From Candidatus Poribacteria bacterium (GTDB taxonomy: Bacteria > Poribacteria > WGA-4E > WGA-3G), in contig JAJECD010000236.1 in the NCBI GenBank assembly GCA_022822215.1, forward strand, positions 1 to 35,788: DNA of 35,788 nt. Reading direction: 5' to 3'. Below are positions 17,485-35,788 of the stretch, piece after piece (the stretch's first letter is position 1; each line of letters starts with the position of its first letter). Below the pieces are notes generated by a model. The model saw only the letters and a program-made list of their open reading frames with translations, was not told where the DNA came from and did not search any database. The translations under genes and the position numbers were made by a program.

Positions 17485-18738
17485 ATGTCAGATCAAATCG
17501 TTTGTATCCGCGCTAATTCGCTCGTTGATGGGATCAGCACGTCTGCCAAAACGCATCAGGCAATCCTTGTGACCAACGGACGCATTGACGCTGTTGGTCC
17601 TCAAGAAGAGATTGCCAAAAAAACACCGCCTGACGCACAAGTTATTGACCTCGGTGCCGCGTGTCTCGCCTCGGGTCTCATCGACGGACATACACACCTG
17701 AGCCTTGCAGGTGACGGGCGGAACTATGTGCAGATGTTCTCTGAAACCGATGAGATGATGGTGTTGACTGGTGCGATGAACCTGCAATGCCATCTCGCCG
17801 CGGGGATTACGACAATCCGTGAGCACGGCGCGCGGAACAAAGTCGGATTTACGCTCAAAGAGGGGCTTGAACGCGGTTACATTCCTGGTCCACGTGCCTT
17901 AGTCAGTGGACGACCCATCACTTGCACAGGCGGACATTTCCATGTATGTAACGAGACAGCGGATGGTGAGGCGGAGATGCGCCGTTCCGTCCGCCGCTTG
18001 GTTCACGAAGGCGCGGATTATATCAAGATTATGGCATCAGGTGGTGGGACTGCCGGAACGATTCCGGGACGCGCCAGCTACTCTGTTGCTGAGTTGCACG
18101 CCGCTGTCCATGAAGCGCACCACTTCCACCGGCTCACAGTGGCACACTGCCGCGCGAAGGAATCGATGGTGCGAGCGGTTGAAGCGGGTATTGACCTGAT
18201 GGAGCATGCGGAATTTCTCGATCCGGACGGTGAACTCCGATTCGATCCTAAAATTGCGGAGATGATGGCGGAATCTGGTATCTGGATCAGTCCAACACTT
18301 CAAGCGTGGACAGGGTATCCGCGCATCGTTGAACTTCGCAAAAAACGGGACAGTGGAACAATTTCTGCCGGTGAAACGACTGAATTAAAACAAAGCGAAG
18401 CGCGGGCAGAAGTCCGATTGGACGTGATGCGGCGTATGCTCGACTATGACCTCCGGGATAGGATTGTGCCAGGGACTGATTCAGGTGTTGGCAATCTCGC
18501 ATTCGGGCATCTTGATTACGATTTGCAACTGCTTGTCGAAGTCGGATTTACACCGGCAGAGGCACTCATTTCAGCGACCCGTATCTCCGCCGAGGCAATC
18601 GGCATGGCAGATGAGATTGGGACGATTGCCCCGGGCAAAATTGCTGACCTCGTCGCTTTTGAGACTGATCCGACGAACGATGTGGGTACGTTTAGCCGAG
18701 TGGTTGCGGTGTTTCAAGCGGGGAAGCGGGTGAAATGA
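17485..18738 (+). CDS. Metal-dependent amidohydrolase (prolidase-like subgroup)
   Basis: GLIDGHTHL, YIKIMASGG, VAHC, MEHA, GTDSG, GKIADLV. Confidence 0.92.
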   Translation: MSDQIVCIRANSLVDGISTSAKTHQAILVTNGRIDAVGPQEEIAKKTPPDAQVIDLGAACLASGLIDGHTHLSLAGDGRNYVQMFSETDEMMVLTGAMNLQCHLAAGITTIREHGARNKVGFTLKEGLERGYIPGPRALVSGRPITCTGGHFHVCNETADGEAEMRRSVRRLVHEGADYIKIMASGGGTAGTIPGRASYSVAELHAAVHEAHHFHRLTVAHCRAKESMVRAVEAGIDLMEHAEFLDPDGELRFDPKIAEMMAESGIWISPTLQAWTGYPRIVELRKKRDSGTISAGETTELKQSEARAEVRLDVMRRMLDYDLRDRIVPGTDSGVGNLAFGHLDYDLQLLVEVGFTPAEALISATRISAEAIGMADEIGTIAPGKIADLVAFETDPTNDVGTFSRVVAVFQAGKRVK

Positions 18739-29673: not shown

Positions 29674-30873
29674 ATGAAATTAACCTTTAAGTATCCTACG
29701 AAAACACAGGAAGAAACAGTGTTAGCGTGGCTTGACCATCTCTGCGAACTCCAGAACTCCGCACGCAATAACCGAAAGCATGCACACGAAGAAGAAGGTC
29801 GTTTTGTTTCGCGATATGACCAAGAGCAACTTTTGAAAGTTGCCCGTGAGAAATATGACGACTTTCGGGAAGTCCCTCAAGATTTTCAAGTTTCTATTCT
29901 CAAACGTGTTGATAAAGCATTTGATGCGTTCCGGAGACGGTGTAAAGAAGGTGCGGCGAAAAAAGGCTACCCTCGCTATAAAAAGCGTGTCCGTTCTTTG
30001 ACGTGGTGCTTGCGAAAGCACAAACTTAAAACCGGTGAACGAGTTCGTCAAAACCCGATCCGCGAAACAGGCTTTCGCCATAACCGCTTGAAAGTGCCGA
30101 AGTTGGGTGAAGTCAAGATACGGATGCACCGTCCGTTTGAAGGGGATCCGAAAGAAGTCACGCTCGTGAAAAAAGCAAGTGGCTGGTATGCTTATATTAC
30201 TTGTGAAATCCCCAACACTCCGAAAGTCGAACCGACGGATGCGATCGCTGTTGACGTTGGCACGACAAACTATCTGACGACTTCTGAAGGCGAAAAGGAA
30301 GATAACCCGCGTTGGTATCGCCAAGCAGAAGGATTGCTGCATAAACACAACCAGACGATGGCACGCCGAAAGAAAGGCTCTAAACGCTGGTATAAAGCGG
30401 GGCATGCCGTTGCGCTTCATCATGAACGAACTGCTAATAAACGCAAAGACTTCATTGGTAAACTCGTCTACAAACTTTTTCATCATTGCGAAAATAACGT
30501 GCTTATCACTGAAGACCTCAGCGTATCTAACATGGTTCAGAATAAGCACCTCAGCAAGAGCATTTCGGATGCGTCTTGGGGTAAATTTTTTGAATGGTGT
30601 GGGAACATAGCCGAAAGAGACGGTTTCCACTTCCATCAAGTTGCTCCCAAGAACACTTCGCAAACGTGCTCTGCTTGTGGTAAGAAATCGCCAAAGAAAC
30701 TCTCTTTAGCGATACGGACCTTTAATTGTAGTTTTTGTGGCACGGTTTTAGACCGAGACCACAATGCTGCGATAAACATACTCTTACGGGCGGCTTGCGC
30801 CCATCGTGGAGAGCGTTGGGTTACCACCCTCTATGAAACGAGAAACACAAACGAAGCACGGGACGCGGGCTGA
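29674..30873 (+). CDS. tnpB: RNA-guided endonuclease TnpB
   Basis: GYPRYK, LKVPKLG, RuvC-I AVDVG, RuvC-II TEDL, Zn finger CSAC...CSFC, RuvC-III DRDHNAAINI. Confidence 0.95.
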   Translation: MKLTFKYPTKTQEETVLAWLDHLCELQNSARNNRKHAHEEEGRFVSRYDQEQLLKVAREKYDDFREVPQDFQVSILKRVDKAFDAFRRRCKEGAAKKGYPRYKKRVRSLTWCLRKHKLKTGERVRQNPIRETGFRHNRLKVPKLGEVKIRMHRPFEGDPKEVTLVKKASGWYAYITCEIPNTPKVEPTDAIAVDVGTTNYLTTSEGEKEDNPRWYRQAEGLLHKHNQTMARRKKGSKRWYKAGHAVALHHERTANKRKDFIGKLVYKLFHHCENNVLITEDLSVSNMVQNKHLSKSISDASWGKFFEWCGNIAERDGFHFHQVAPKNTSQTCSACGKKSPKKLSLAIRTFNCSFCGTVLDRDHNAAINILLRAACAHRGERWVTTLYETRNTNEARDAG

Positions 30874-30963
30874 GAGACTGCTGAACAACTGTTGTTCAGC
30901 GACCTCTTAACAAGCCCAAGTCTTTAGGCTTGGGTACATTGACTTTTTGAGAAGGACCATGAG
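30780..30963 (+). ncRNA. Predicted TnpB omegaRNA (5' boundary approximate)
   Basis: Established position overlapping the tnpB 3' end and right end. Contains a perfect inverted repeat GCTGAACAAC-T-GTTGTTCAGC (30880-30900) and the right-end hairpin. The guide is predicted to start at 30944. Confidence 0.6.
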
Positions 30964-31828
30964 AGATTACTACGAGATCCTCGGTGTAGACCGAAGAGCG
31001 ACCCCAGAAGAAATTAAGAAAGCGTATCGCAAACTCGCAGTTCAGTATCATCCGGACAAAAATCCTGGTGACAAAGGGGCAGAAGAGAAATTCAAAGAAG
31101 CATCGAATGCCTATTCGGTACTCTCCGACCCAGAAAAGCGACGCGTCTATAACACACGCGGGCATGCTGGCGTGAATAACATGGGGTTTGAAGGCTATAC
31201 GACGATGGACGACATCTTCGCGAACCTGAACCTCGACGATATTTTTGGGCGCGGCGGGTTTGGTGGATTCGGTGGGTTCGGCGATGCCTTCGGCGATGCC
31301 TTTGGTCAACGGCGTACAACTGCGCCTACACGGGGACGCGACATCCGCATGAACATCAGTATCCCTTTCGGGGACGCAATATTGGGTAACAAGAAAGAGG
31401 TCACTGTCCGAGGAAAGCGGATCACCCTTACAATTCCACCCGGTATTGAGAACGGAAAAACCTTACGCATACGAGGTCAGGGCGAATCTCTTGGTATTGG
31501 CATGTCGGGTGATTTATTGGTAACGGTCTCTGTGCAGCCGCATCCGACATTGACCAGCGACGGCTTAGATTTGTTGACAGATGCAAAAATCTCTATGACG
31601 ACCGCAGCATTAGGGGGTTCGGTTCGTGTGAAAACGCTAACTGATGATGTGGATTTAAAGATCCCGCCGGGTGCGCAGCCTGGACAGCAATTACGTCTAC
31701 GTGGGCGGGGTGGAACGGATACCTCTGGACGGAAAGGGGATTTACGGGTGCGATTGGTTGTAGAGATACCGAAATCGTTGTCTCGCAAGCAGCGGAATTT
31801 GCTCAAGGAATTTGAGAAGACGCTGTGA
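30959..31828 (+). CDS. DnaJ class B (CbpA-like) co-chaperone
   Basis: [16 protein letters not shown]-rich linker, C-terminal domain, no CxxCxGxG Zn repeats; AAGGA RBS before ATG 30959. Confidence 0.92.
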
Positions 31829-31930: not shown

Positions 31931-32161
31931 ATGCCAACCCGACTTGAACTCATTCATAGTAATATAATGGAAGCAGAAGTTGATGCTATCGTGAACCCAA
32001 CAGACCTTGTTCTCAGTGGTGGGGGCGGTCTGGACCGGGTCATTCGTCAAGCTGCTGGTGAAGAGGTGGATCTGGCATGTGAGGGGATTCGCGAAAATTA
32101 TGGTGGTTGTCAAACCGGTATTGGATTTCGTTTGTTCTGCTTTCTCGGAGAAAAAAAGTAA
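31931..32161 (+). pseudogene. Truncated macrodomain (ADP-ribose binding/hydrolase) gene
   Basis: VDAIVNPTD..LSGGGGLDRVIRQAAG...GGCQTG, after which homology is lost; only 76 aa. Confidence 0.75.
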
Positions 32162-32386: not shown

Positions 32387-32749
32387 ATGGAACTGGAAGG
32401 TTATTTTGACTTCATTCAAGAAGGGGTCATCCGGATTAAAGGGAATCGCATTGACATCGAGATTGTATTAGAAGATTATCTGGAAGGCGCGAGTCCGGAA
32501 GAAATTCTGCTACGCTATCCAACCTTAAACCTTGAAAAAATACACGCAACTATCCTCTACTATCTGGCGAAAAAAGAGGAAGTGGAAGCATATCTTGAAC
32601 GGGTGAGGCAACTTGACGAGGAAGCGGAACAAGAACAACTACGGAATCCATCACCTTTCGTGGTTGAATTACGGGAACGTTTCGCAAAGGCTTCCCAAGA
32701 ATTGCTTGAGGCTGAAGGCAAACGTACCAGATCGGCAGATGTCTTATGA
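32387..32749 (+). CDS. DUF433 family putative antitoxin
   Basis: IRIKGNRIDIE...GASPEEILLRYPTLNLEKIHATILYY. Confidence 0.9.
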   Translation: MELEGYFDFIQEGVIRIKGNRIDIEIVLEDYLEGASPEEILLRYPTLNLEKIHATILYYLAKKEEVEAYLERVRQLDEEAEQEQLRNPSPFVVELRERFAKASQELLEAEGKRTRSADVL

Positions 32750-33105
32750 GACCTCGATTTCTCCTTGATGAAAACATGGATCGAGCGATTCAGCGGCAGC
32801 TCCAACGATTGAGTCCAGAAATAGACGTGAAGTTGGTGGGAGATGCGCAAGTGCCGCCACGAGGAACGTCTGATCCAGACATTTTGATGTGGATAGAAGA
32901 CAATGATTATATTTTGGTTACCAGAAACCGTAAGACGATGCCAAAGCACTTTAAGGAGCATCTGGCTGCGGGCAGGCAAGTCCCAGGAGTACTTTGCATC
33001 CGAAAATCTGTAGCGATGACAGAGCTCATCAATGTGTTATATCTGATTTGGTATGCTTCCGATGCTGAGGAGTATCGCGATAGGTTGGTATTCATCCCGC
33101 TATAA
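32746..33105 (+). CDS. DUF5615 PIN-like putative toxin
   Basis: FLLDENM, GTSDPDIL, ILVTRN; ATGA coupling to the DUF433 gene. Confidence 0.88.
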   Translation: MRPRFLLDENMDRAIQRQLQRLSPEIDVKLVGDAQVPPRGTSDPDILMWIEDNDYILVTRNRKTMPKHFKEHLAAGRQVPGVLCIRKSVAMTELINVLYLIWYASDAEEYRDRLVFIPL

Positions 33106-33239
33106 TATCCAATGGGTTCGCTAAAACACTGAGAATCTATTAAATAATTGGTGTAGAGATATTGAAGTATAGATGATCGATTCATTTTTGACATCGGATT
33201 TCATCGAAATAGACATAAATGCTGTGCAAGAAATAACCT

Positions 33240-35558
33240 TTGTCGTATTGGTTGGAAGCGGATAATAATCTCCGCCGCAATGTGGAATATACGAGAAACC
33301 AATTGAAAAAGACTAAGATTTTTCATTCATTCGCCGAGTGTAATAAAGAGGTTCAACGTCTAAAACTTTTGCAAAAGCAGCATCCGCTTTGTCCTGAAGC
33401 TATACCGCTGGAACTGGCTGACTTAGATCAGTGGATAGTTTGGTCTTACGAAGTTTGTCGGTGGCAAAATGGGATGTTCGGTGTCGGTAAAGTTCCTTAT
33501 CAAGCCAGGAATCCCAATGAAAAAGCATCGAGAACTACGTCATTGGATTGGTGTGACTTGGAAACAGCTGTACAGTGTGTGAAAAATAATCAGTATCATG
33601 TTGATGGTATCGGCTTCGTTTTTTCGCGCGAAGACGGTCTCAGTGGTGTTGATTTTGATAACTGTCGTGACCCTTTAACAGGACACATCCGTAAAGAATA
33701 CCAATTTTGGATTGACGCACTCGGCGGATACGCTGAAGTTAGTCCTTCGCGTACTGGTGTAAAGGCTTGGGTGAAAGGAACTGTATCCGATAGATATTTT
33801 AAAACTGAAAAATCAACAGGATTCAGAATTCTGAATTTCGCGGGTGGTGAAATAGAAGTCTATCGGCGAGGCCAATACTTCACAGTTACAACGCAACGCT
33901 TAAAAGACGCGTGGTGGCTTGCTCCAGCTCAGACGGAATTGGATGTTCTCAGCGAATGGTCCCTGTCAAAGGTTAGCAGAGATATATCATACTACTTCTC
34001 GTCAGCACTCTTGTCTATGCAAGAAACTATGATAAGTGAGTTATCTTTGCCCGGACCTACGGATGAAGATGCGAAGCGCGAGTTGTCCTTGTTGCAGAAG
34101 TATTGGGATGAAATAAGTTATGGATATATTGATGAATCATCAATAACACAAGGAGTGGTAGAGATGCCCACTGATTTTGATCTATATCCTATTGGAGATG
34201 TATCTTATGTTAACATTGGTCAGTCTCGATGCCACCGATGCGGTAGGAAGTGTGAACCACAATATGAATTATGTAGTGATTGCTATAGGGACGGGGAACC
34301 TGAGTATAAGGTAAAGGAGGCAGTTTTTAACTATTTCTCCAAACCCAAATTTCAGAAAGATGGTTTTTTTCCAAAGTATGAACATAAGATTCGTATTGGG
34401 ACTTATACACCTCGCCCCGATGTCGTTCTTTTTGATCAACAAGGAAATTTGGCGGCTATTGCAGAGTGCAAACGGAGTGGAGTCACAAATTATGGAATTA
34501 AACAGTTAAAATCTTATCTCACCATGAGCGATGCGCAATTTGGGGTATTTGCTAATAGTACTGAACCGGATAAATGGATCTATTTTGAGAATTTGCGTAG
34601 ATATAATTTTAAACAAGATGTATCACGTTCTCAATTTGAAACAGAGATTGTTACAGATCGATCAATAGAGTCCATTCGTGAAGAGAAAGCCAGACTCGTT
34701 AGAGAAACCGAACAAGCAAATATCCAACTAACGAAAGAAGTTTGTTCGTTAAGTGTTAAGAAAGATCAATTGCAAAATGAGATGACAACACAGAAGCAAC
34801 AGCATATACTCCTAAAGCAACAATGTATGCGTCTATTACAAAAAATAAGTTTCTTAGAGCGAGACAAGGACAGGCTTGAGAAAAATCGAAATAAAATCAA
34901 GCTTGAGCGAAAAGTCCAGCGAGAAGCACTAAAAAAAATAAGTTCTGATTTAGATGGGCGTATTAAGCATAAAACCTCCCTAATTCAAGAACTTGAATCA
35001 AAATTGGGCGAACTAGAAGTAACATTTGCCCAAAAACCTATTTATGGAGAAATTGAAAAAGAACTTAAACGATTAAATGAACTGGAATCAGAAATCACGC
35101 GGAAGCAACAAGCAGTTGGAAGATATAAGGAAAAGTATGCTGCTTATGAAAAAAATAAAGTAGAAATCAATCAAAAAATACAACGACTCGTCCAAGTTTC
35201 GGAAAAAAGGGAATCTATTCTCAAGCAACTTAGGGTAGTAGTTAATCGATTAAAAACAACGAACCTTGAACAAGAGGCACAAATTGAAAGGCATCGGGAA
35301 CAATTAGTACAAGATTTGCGAAAGCAAGGATCTATTTCCACTCAACTTACGGCAGAAATCAACCAGTTAAAAGAAACGCAATCTAGATTGGAAACGGAAA
35401 TTATGGAAAAGACACAGCAATCCCCGGACGAGGAAAAAGAAATGCGTCCTGCTTATATACAGATTCAGGTACAAATTGATAAACTGGAAGCAGAAAAATC
35501 TAAACTTGAATCAGAAATTGGGCATCGAATTTTTATGCTTCAACTTCAGAAAGATTGA
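33240..35558 (+). CDS. Multidomain fusion: phage-type prim-pol (AEP) + Zn finger + HsdR_N-like PD-(D/E)xK nuclease + coiled coil
   Basis: IPLELADLDQWIVW, GKVPY, GIGFVF, GVDFDNC, YAEVSPSRTG, IEVY..GQYFTVT; CHRC-x10-CSDC; RPDVVL...IAECKR...QLKSY; about 290 aa of heptad-rich C-terminus. Start codon uncertain. Confidence 0.8.
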   Translation: MSYWLEADNNLRRNVEYTRNQLKKTKIFHSFAECNKEVQRLKLLQKQHPLCPEAIPLELADLDQWIVWSYEVCRWQNGMFGVGKVPYQARNPNEKASRTTSLDWCDLETAVQCVKNNQYHVDGIGFVFSREDGLSGVDFDNCRDPLTGHIRKEYQFWIDALGGYAEVSPSRTGVKAWVKGTVSDRYFKTEKSTGFRILNFAGGEIEVYRRGQYFTVTTQRLKDAWWLAPAQTELDVLSEWSLSKVSRDISYYFSSALLSMQETMISELSLPGPTDEDAKRELSLLQKYWDEISYGYIDESSITQGVVEMPTDFDLYPIGDVSYVNIGQSRCHRCGRKCEPQYELCSDCYRDGEPEYKVKEAVFNYFSKPKFQKDGFFPKYEHKIRIGTYTPRPDVVLFDQQGNLAAIAECKRSGVTNYGIKQLKSYLTMSDAQFGVFANSTEPDKWIYFENLRRYNFKQDVSRSQFETEIVTDRSIESIREEKARLVRETEQANIQLTKEVCSLSVKKDQLQNEMTTQKQQHILLKQQCMRLLQKISFLERDKDRLEKNRNKIKLERKVQREALKKISSDLDGRIKHKTSLIQELESKLGELEVTFAQKPIYGEIEKELKRLNELESEITRKQQAVGRYKEKYAAYEKNKVEINQKIQRLVQVSEKRESILKQLRVVVNRLKTTNLEQEAQIERHREQLVQDLRKQGSISTQLTAEINQLKETQSRLETEIMEKTQQSPDEEKEMRPAYIQIQVQIDKLEAEKSKLESEIGHRIFMLQLQKD

Positions 35559-35763: not shown

Positions 35764-35788
35764 ATGATCTCATTATCACAACGGAGTC
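35764..35788 (+). CDS. Start of an unidentified gene cut by the window edge
   Basis: AAGGAGAG RBS, then ATG ATC TCA TTA TCA CAA CGG AGT. Confidence 0.4.

Follow-up and report, generated by a model that had tools for sequence, protein, structure and literature searches.

A Poribacteria gene that joins an NrS-1-type primase-polymerase to a restriction-type nuclease and a coiled coil: a possible single-chain effector from a modular family

What use might a bacterial chromosome have for a phage-type primase-polymerase that is fused, in one polypeptide, to a restriction-type nuclease? The question is raised by a gene at positions 33240-35558 of contig JAJECD010000236.1 (C170) from a Candidatus Poribacteria bacterium. 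We analysed the entire 35,788-base contig, hereafter the window, which belongs to a 4.3-Mb metagenome-assembled genome that is 84% complete. Poribacteria are sponge symbionts that are not culturable, and their accessory genes are largely uncharted. The gene product consists of four parts in the following order: an archaeo-eukaryotic primase (AEP) primase-polymerase (prim-pol) domain of the NrS-1 type, a C4 zinc ribbon, a PD-(D/E)xK nuclease of the HSDR_N_2 family and a coiled coil of about 290 residues. It is tempting to view it as a stand-alone, single-polypeptide DNA-targeting effector of a Poribacteria-specific conflict system acting against mobile elements, a reading to which we give a probability of roughly 45%. 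What we draw on was computed throughout: how the protein is made up of domains, the conservation of its catalytic residues, the modular nature of the family, its location in a hotspot and a sister fusion with WD40 repeats and DarT.

Is the gene genuine? A preliminary description, made by a model from the sequence without database searches, had raised two ways in which the fusion might be spurious, as a singleton or as an assembly chimera unsupported by reads. The window sequence recurs without differences in contigs of run X1, and one 3606-base contig of run X2, a different sample of the same study, covers 33004-35541 unbroken with 36 differences and spans all domain junctions; an assembly chimera was therefore rejected. 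A word-indexed search returned 79 relatives and an exhaustive search 33 representatives at E<=1e-30. Domain-wise phmmer comparison found the AEP followed by the Zn-nuclease in 27 stored cluster representatives, the window protein included, which excludes a singleton. In a collection of species-representative genomes, full-length matches among the best 80 of 389 came only from three Poribacteria chromosomes or contigs (L005-L007), the remainder matching the AEP part alone. The frame has three candidate TTG starts, at 33240, 33252 and 33303, and it is uncertain which of them is the true one: the second is the start of P0002, a protein 98% identical to that of the window, and the third agrees with the 'MKKT/MIKS' starts of most relatives. 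The GC content is 0.39 in the gene as against 0.49 in the rest of the window. Its product is 46% identical to the L005 ortholog, whereas flanking core genes of the same two loci are 63-88% identical; the gene thus evolves faster than its neighbours.

The assignment of the N-terminal domain follows from several comparisons. The PHROGs family phrog_13901 ('DNA primase/helicase') matches aa 53-223 with E 6.1e-29, and the NrS-1 primase chains 7rr3, 6a9w and 6k9a match with E 2e-10 when a single sequence is used and 5e-18 with the family profile. Since a full-length AlphaFold model from a 19-row alignment was poor for the AEP (pLDDT <50), aa 1-330 were modelled from a 106-row alignment, which gave pLDDT >90 across aa ~25-245. 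The top Foldseek match of this model is NrS-1 N300 (E 4e-14, probability 1.0, TM 0.45-0.56), followed by pRN1 ORF904 and then by the CRISPR-associated prim-pol CAPP; PMC5862659 likewise clusters NrS-1-like enzymes with pRN1-like PrimPols. The preliminary description had already called the domain NrS-1-like, a correct call of unusual precision, and every motif that it named is found in the translation at the residue given. In the AEP part these are QWIVW (64-68), KVPY (84-87), GIGFVF (123-128), D138-F-D140, SPSRTG (168-173), E206-V-Y208 and YFTVT (213-217).

Both the immediate family and its more distant relatives largely keep the catalytic residues. In an alignment of 19 full-length relatives, D138, D140, S168-P-S170, G173, K175 and E206 are invariant. 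In the wider alignment D138 and D140 are present in 45/45 family rows and 102/102 other rows, and E206 in 44/45 and 93/102, respectively. We take E206 to be the catalytic residue of motif III on account of its alignment with 'EVY' of NrS-1 in the profile comparison. According to PMC8718748, the SPS loop takes the place of a zinc knuckle in NrS-1 and contacts the gamma-phosphate of the dNTP. The position of the motif II (motif-B, sxH) histidine is occupied by K175. Because lysine is also the majority state among 102 relatives from mobile genetic elements (MGEs; 82 K, 17 H and 3 R), it is probably functional in the family AEP. Q212, in contrast, is family-specific, with Arg at this position in 92 of the 102 relatives. 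The strict conservation of the AEP catalytic residues argues for an active polymerase. Consequently, of the roles proposed in the preliminary description, that of a sensor or decoy fits poorly; the AEP is presumably an active polymerase or extender.

The same domain appears to have been captured from a replicase. AEP identity to the window protein is 46-99% for family members versus 27-43% for MGE relatives, and outside the family its closest relatives are replicases of viruses or MGEs (26-43% identity). Among the best 80 of 505 matches in viral contigs, alignments span aa ~25-295 only, with 26-38% identity. In the protein itself, neither the Pfam scan nor the AlphaFold model contains a helix-bundle/PriCT domain or a helicase; the absence of the helix bundle is concluded from the chain after aa 245, which is variable, indel-rich and of low confidence in both the 19-member alignment and the model. 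These results support the earlier idea of a domesticated phage replication domain. PMC8718748 describes pRN1 and NrS-1 enzymes as needing the helix-bundle domain for efficient priming. Within the linker, aa 275-292 (nt about 34062-34115) form a semi-conserved acidic helix, 'RELSLLxxYWDE', which may be a docking motif.

For the remaining parts the domain calls of the preliminary description (a C4 zinc finger, an intact PD-(D/E)xK site and a coiled coil of ~290 aa) all proved correct by motifs, Pfam and model. Among the 19 full-length relatives C331, C334 and C345 are invariant and C348 is kept in at least 90%; in the nuclease D394, E409, C410, K411, Q422 and Y426 are all invariant. Pfam HSDR_N_2 matches aa 380-442 (E 2.6e-7, 31.2 bits versus a cut-off of 25), the region aa 350-470 has pLDDT 75-91 in the full-length model, and Foldseek relates the modelled nuclease to restriction-endonuclease folds (3ijm with E 2.6e-4, then 3ot2, 9y1l, Cas4 4r5q, NucS 2vld and HsdR 3h1t). 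The modelled coiled-coil helices comprise residues 479-596, 601-673, 676-722 and 738-771. SMC-type NCBIfam matches to this part are far below threshold (SMC_prok_B, 27 bits versus a cut-off of 567) and are treated here as compositional. A two-copy prediction of aa 350-772 scored 0.00 ('no answer') and is uninformative on oligomerisation either way; an ESM Atlas look-up with aa 320-772 returned no usable match.

Comparison of the relatives indicates that the gene is an allele within a modular family, in which the zinc ribbon and nuclease, usually with the coiled coil, form a constant chassis. We defined the family by the C4 ribbon and a D...ECK...QLxxY...G..N/D...W core, the usual coiled coil with its conserved C-terminal block and a position upstream of an aminotransferase gene; the window protein has all of these. 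The nuclease motifs likewise show no variation among 19 chassis proteins whose N- or C-terminus is of another type. The N-terminus may be an AEP, an OB fold, as in most relatives, or absent, and the C-terminus may be a coiled coil, a coiled coil with HhH, Macro, TPR or a membrane tail (TPR repeats follow the coiled coil in P0034, and hydrophobic tails end P0016, P0021 and P0024). Architectures found by Pfam within the island described below are included in Table 1; those of L085, L086 and L089 were assigned through 60-65% full-length identity to L084. In genus g1, stand-alone genes for a MacroD-type Macro lie ahead of the chassis gene; with the Macro that genus g6 carries as a fusion they share 54-57% identity, a fusion/fission link.

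The N-terminal modules have been swapped repeatedly across the family. In a maximum-likelihood tree built from 42 chassis rows, the well-supported branches require the AEP label to change at least four times and the OB-size label at least three times; rows labelled 'none' were not counted because they may be contig-cut fragments. The window protein itself is a mosaic: its AEP is 85% identical to that of P0003 (167/197), whereas in the coiled coil the identity is 67% with the OB-headed P0029 (183/272) versus 53% with the AEP-bearing P0003 (150/283). A family-type AEP is found in 8 of 176 Poribacteria genomes. It is attached to the nuclease chassis in four of them (G000, G099, G068 and G085) and to WD40(-DarT) in two (G105 and G135), and in the other two it lies on short contigs. 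Among the matches listed, genomes carry several chassis copies, many with in-frame stops.

The AEP-WD40 proteins constitute a sister fusion. Eleven relatives share the AEP part only (~57-65% identity), which is then followed by WD40 repeats. In one of these, P0050, the C-terminal domain is DarT (Pfam 77 bits versus a cut-off of 22.5; PADLOC DarT E 1.5e-8), and PF14487 appears in the precomputed domain lists of 10/11. The AEP-WD40-DarT proteins are ~830-910 aa long (P0050 and P0046-P0058; L105 = G105:C10:738-3326 and L104 = G135:C55:92808-95572), and no description of such a fusion was found in the literature searched. The contigs that carry these genes at L104 and L105 are short or cut. DarT, an ADP-ribosyltransferase acting on single-stranded DNA (ssDNA), belongs to the defence system DarTG named in PMC9503650. 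Within Poribacteria, DarT domains occur widely and in many fusions.

The chromosomal site is a further source of evidence. The chassis gene is found at the same site in three genera: L005 and L006 keep the order asd, APH-type kinase, DnaJ, the gene, aminotransferase and sulfatase, and L007 keeps the downstream side only. The aminotransferase gene is present in 108 of the 112 genomes of the taxonomic family. By coordinates compared by eye, at least 39 of these 108 have a Zn-nuclease match directly upstream of it, a lower bound since 150 of 248 Zn-nuclease matches were listed. We then took 20 DnaJ-aminotransferase loci, ten chosen for a listed match and ten for having none. The chassis gene was present in 10/10 of the former and 0/10 of the latter, which held only a toxin-antitoxin (TA) pair (two loci), were nearly empty (three), carried a ~300-aa family or a fragment of it (four) or carried a Ser/Thr kinase (one). 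Macro, HNH and Ser/Thr-kinase genes also occur within the 20 loci. In all, 24 of the 108 DnaJ-aminotransferase loci were read. The interval between DnaJ and the aminotransferase is a variable, low-GC island.

How might such a protein work? We infer the activity of the AEP and the nuclease, their substrate, the oligomerisation and the defence role as follows. The constant working part would be the zinc ribbon and nuclease carried on the long coiled coil, while the swappable N-terminal module would choose the DNA to which the nuclease is brought. For the window gene, this module would be a prim-pol with an intact catalytic site, taken over from the replicase of a phage or plasmid, and for most relatives it would be an OB fold that binds ssDNA. 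The AEP would engage single-stranded or primer-template DNA, for example foreign DNA that is entering or replicating, and would make or lengthen a short complementary strand on it. Cutting by the adjoining nuclease would follow, probably in an oligomeric form that the coiled coil holds together and perhaps on the duplex made by the AEP.

We favour an effector on several grounds. The heads (AEP and OB) share the engagement of single-stranded or primer-template DNA, and the tails (PD-(D/E)xK and DarT) share DNA damage. According to PMC9503650 (section 3.8), it is a hallmark of conflict systems that they evolve rapidly, that a core gains or loses modules and that equivalent domains displace one another, and the family matches conflict hallmarks in four respects: rapid evolution, presence/absence variation among close genomes, module displacement and co-residence with a TA pair. 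Finally, AEP domains already occur in defence proteins, as UG10/DRT fusions of reverse transcriptase with AEP and as CRISPR-associated forms (PMC9226505). The catalytic conservation of prim-pol and nuclease, the variable island with chassis genes of five architectures and the Zn-nuclease matches next to the aminotransferase gene, the patchy AEP, the module swaps, the fast divergence and low GC of the gene and the DarT sister fusion all count for this reading.

Nonetheless, a number of points weigh against it. No catalogued defence gene (restriction-modification, CRISPR or PADLOC families) was found in the island of the loci sampled, and nothing accounts for the sparing of self DNA. The gene sits among housekeeping genes, and in two of the four AEP-bearing loci with context (L005 and L006) its stop overlaps the aminotransferase start by 4 bases, an arrangement resembling that of constitutively co-expressed genes. 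The modules OB, HhH, Macro and AEP are typical of repair, too. Since the helix-bundle domain is missing, de novo priming by the family AEP is uncertain.

The main rival, which we regard as rather unlikely, is a role in DNA repair or damage tolerance. The AEP would fill gaps, reprime or join ends by microhomology, the nuclease would trim flaps or ends, and the coiled coil would tether DNA in the manner of Rad50/SbcC or CtIP; OB, HhH and Macro would then be alternative lesion- or DNA-binding modules on one repair chassis, which possibly handles ADP-ribosylated DNA in a DarT-rich phylum. LigD is a precedent in that it also joins an AEP polymerase with a nuclease. The fusion of OB (tRNA_anti_2), HhH_3 and MacroD-type Macro domains to the chassis, or their location next to it, would suit such a role, as would the housekeeping surroundings, the overlap with the next gene and the abundance of DarT domains. 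MGE-derived prim-pols are in addition capable of translesion synthesis and terminal transfer as well as of microhomology-mediated end joining, and can help repair (AgaPP; PMC11724360). However, a repair gene would hardly be distributed so patchily, with a locus that is often empty, nor be expected in several copies per genome, many of those listed with in-frame stops. Likewise at odds with repair are its fast divergence relative to the neighbours, the repeated swapping of its N-terminus and the joining of the same AEP to the toxin domain DarT. The Macro of the island, which belongs to the MacroD/YmdB type and has no DarG match in PADLOC, also counts against repair; on the same grounds we rejected it as a DarG-like antitoxin.

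Alternatively, the gene might encode a replication or mobility protein, remnant or working, of an integrated mobile element that corresponds to the island, with the prim-pol starting replication and the nuclease nicking or excising. The viral and MGE replicases that are the closest outside relatives of the AEP (PHROGs to E 6e-29), the nearby TnpB gene (29674-30873) and TA pair and the low GC content are compatible with this view. Yet no integrase, helicase, PriCT/helix-bundle or structural gene was found in the window (17 other open reading frames, ORFs, scanned) or in L005-L007, and the same chromosomal site is used in three genera. Moreover, the best 80 of 505 viral matches include no full-length form, and full-length forms among the best 80 of 389 genome matches are confined to Poribacteria chromosomes. 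We consider this explanation very unlikely. A structural or nucleoid-associated DNA tether, in which the nuclease fold and the AEP merely bind DNA and the CbpA-like DnaJ is the partner, is just as improbable despite the ~290-aa coiled coil with its conserved blocks and weak SMC-type matches, the adjacent DnaJ/CbpA-like gene and the C-terminal membrane-type tails of some members, since non-catalytic binding would not need the strictly kept catalytic residues of both enzyme domains, and the DnaJ gene is present in genomes without the patchily distributed chassis gene.

A more specific version of the conflict effector can be imagined, although we judge it unlikely. This would be a 'prime-and-cut' immune enzyme, in which the captured prim-pol copies invading ssDNA into duplex and the fused restriction-type nuclease destroys it. 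The window gene would then be one cassette of a Poribacteria-wide, hitherto undescribed modular effector family that freely mixes ssDNA-targeting heads (AEP or OB) with tails that damage DNA or process ADP-ribose (PD-(D/E)xK, DarT or Macro). The substrates might be ssDNA phages, conjugative transfer strands and rolling-circle or replication-fork intermediates. To our knowledge, defences based on nucleases depend for the most part on duplex DNA or a guide, and invaders with single-stranded DNA largely get past them. If the effector reading is right, the protein would stand for a polymerase-dependent restriction principle. It would also mean that a phage replicase domain, with its catalytic site intact, was recruited into two kinds of host effector, a nuclease and the DarT ADP-ribosyltransferase, and a compact effector family that recombines would come to light in Poribacteria. 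Even if the protein serves repair, a single chain of prim-pol, nuclease and coiled coil would be a new end-processing machine and a possible tool.

How does the window protein compare with known systems? With NrS-1 N300 and pRN1 ORF904 it has in common the fold, the DxD motif, the SPS loop, the E-x-Y strand and the Y/F before TVT. Unlike these enzymes, it lacks the helix-bundle/PriCT domain and the helicase, has K175 in place of the motif-B His and Gln212, and carries a fused nuclease and coiled coil. It shares the PD-(D/E)xK core (D...ExK and QxxxY) with the N-terminal nuclease of Type I HsdR. However, it has no SF2 translocase, there is no HsdM or HsdS in the window, and the nuclease is preceded by a C4 ribbon and followed by a coiled coil; judged by its sequence, it is not a Type I restriction enzyme. 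Shedu (SduA) is a defence system of one gene, a nuclease whose N-terminal domains vary. The logic is the same, in that N-terminal modules are exchanged on a constant PD-(D/E)xK nuclease within one chain, but the nuclease of the window protein is of the HSDR_N_2 subfamily, and coiled coil and AEP are not Shedu features; no SduA/DUF4263-type match was found at E<=1 to any PADLOC Shedu model, and Pfam gives HSDR_N_2 only. The SMC-like defence systems Lamassu and Wadjet also combine a long coiled coil with a nuclease, but the window protein has neither ABC ATPase heads nor partner genes, and the PADLOC matches to LmuB (E 0.47) and JetC (E 0.18) cover coiled-coil stretches only and are compositional. 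The link to DarTG is that the same AEP lineage, at about 64% identity, occurs at the N-terminus of DarT-bearing proteins and that both effectors act on DNA; unlike DarTG, the window protein has a nuclease and no DarT, and no DarG was found. Finally, the likeness to LigD of non-homologous end joining and to the pAgo-associated PrimPol AgaPP (PMC11724360) lies in an AEP polymerase combined with end processing and in a repair role, whereas the AEP clade differs (LigD Pol is a weak Foldseek match, E 0.7) and there is no ligase, phosphoesterase, Ku or helicase partner.

The architecture as a whole appears to be undescribed, as had been suspected from the sequence. PADLOC-DB 2023 contains no match to the window protein better than E 0.18, which is coiled-coil noise only. 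No description of an AEP-nuclease architecture was found in the literature searched, which did not cover the supplementary architecture tables of PMC5862659, PMC9226505 and PMC9503650, where such a fusion might be listed. Thus, the architecture is undescribed and the wider family uncharted, but the kind, modular single-chain nuclease effectors, is already known.

Table 1. Parts of the gene, neighbouring features of the window and architectures found in the DnaJ-aminotransferase island
Feature	Positions	Strand	Remarks
Whole gene	33240..35558	+	772 aa from TTG 33240, stop included; frame open
AEP domain, NrS-1/pRN1 'PrimPol proper' type, aa ~25-245	33312..33974	+	DxD (D138, D140), SPS loop 168-170, K175, E206
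Linker, aa 246-325	33975..34214	+	poorly conserved, low model confidence, no helix-bundle/PriCT
C4 zinc ribbon, aa 326-350 (C331, C334, C345, C348)	34215..34289	+	first part of the conserved chassis
PD-(D/E)xK nuclease (Pfam HSDR_N_2), aa 351-472	34290..34655	+	D394, E409-C-K411, Q422xxxY426
Coiled coil, four long helices, aa 479-771	34674..35552	+	conserved central and C-terminal blocks (…IGHxIF)
DnaJ/CbpA-like core gene, left island border	30947..31828	+	
MacroD-type Macro remnant, first 63 aa only	31931..32119	+	90% identity with L091's intact island Macro
DUF433 / DUF5615 (PIN-like) pair, 4-base overlap	32387..33105	+	toxin-antitoxin-type module in the island
Aminotransferase (class I/II) core gene, right island border, first 8 codons (MISLSQRS)	35765..35788	+	rest on contig C337 of the same genome
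OB(tRNA_anti_2)-Zn-HSDR_N-Macro			island architecture, 561-567 aa, Pfam
OB-HSDR_N-coiled coil-HhH_3			island architecture, 629 aa, Pfam
OB-HSDR_N-coiled coil			island architecture, 473-499 aa, Pfam
HSDR_N-Macro			island architecture, 426 aa, Pfam
HSDR_N-coiled coil-HhH_3			island architecture, 442 aa, Pfam

Among the 17 other window ORFs scanned there is no helicase, methyltransferase, specificity subunit or phage structural gene, in agreement with the preliminary description, which had reported no helicase, HsdM/HsdS or phage genes; the ten further large ORFs among the 17 are metabolic or of the MoxR/vWA type. A TnpB/Cas12f-like gene (OrfB_IS605 and TNB) occupies 29674-30873 (+), between the APH-type kinase gene and DnaJ, and is absent from this position in L005. 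The remainder of the window Macro gene was apparently lost at the place now taken by the DUF433/DUF5615 pair. This pair, at 78-90% identity, is also present in the DnaJ-aminotransferase island of L091, L093, L094 and L095, and DUF433 alone in L092. The ~300-aa family of the island, which has no Pfam or PADLOC match, is represented by L084:4301-5191 and by copies in L086, L097, L099 and L089 (two copies). Its gene starts 4 bases before the DnaJ stop, and many 74-94-aa fragments of it occur in L085, L087, L088, L089 and L099.

Several observations concern the chassis in other contexts. The genome of the window has a second, contig-cut chassis paralogue (L002 = G000:C329:16207-17959, match 17707-17958, minus strand), which consists of the nuclease domain's C-terminal half together with a short coiled coil and a tail of hydrophobic residues (…WGWALFLIAIILLF…), suggestive of a membrane-anchored form. 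At L006:9944-10483 (+) in genome G068, a separate HSDR_N_2 ORF of 179 aa lies 4 bases upstream of the AEP-chassis gene; in P0035 a nuclease piece and then the AEP follow each other in the same order within one frame. The HSDR_N_2 subtype is also found at the N-terminus of 750-1100-aa proteins, P0139 (1116 aa), P0111, P0122 and P0130, one of which matches Tubulin_2 (PF13809, E 1.4e-38), the others matching HSDR_N_2 only. Finally, many genomes contain HSDR_N-type frames of ~361-366 aa (for example G144:C59, G127:C278, G142:C1:1737407, G161:C1:1136893 and G110:C7) that very often have exactly one in-frame TAG or TAA, which could reflect decay, recoding or a repeated mobile gene.

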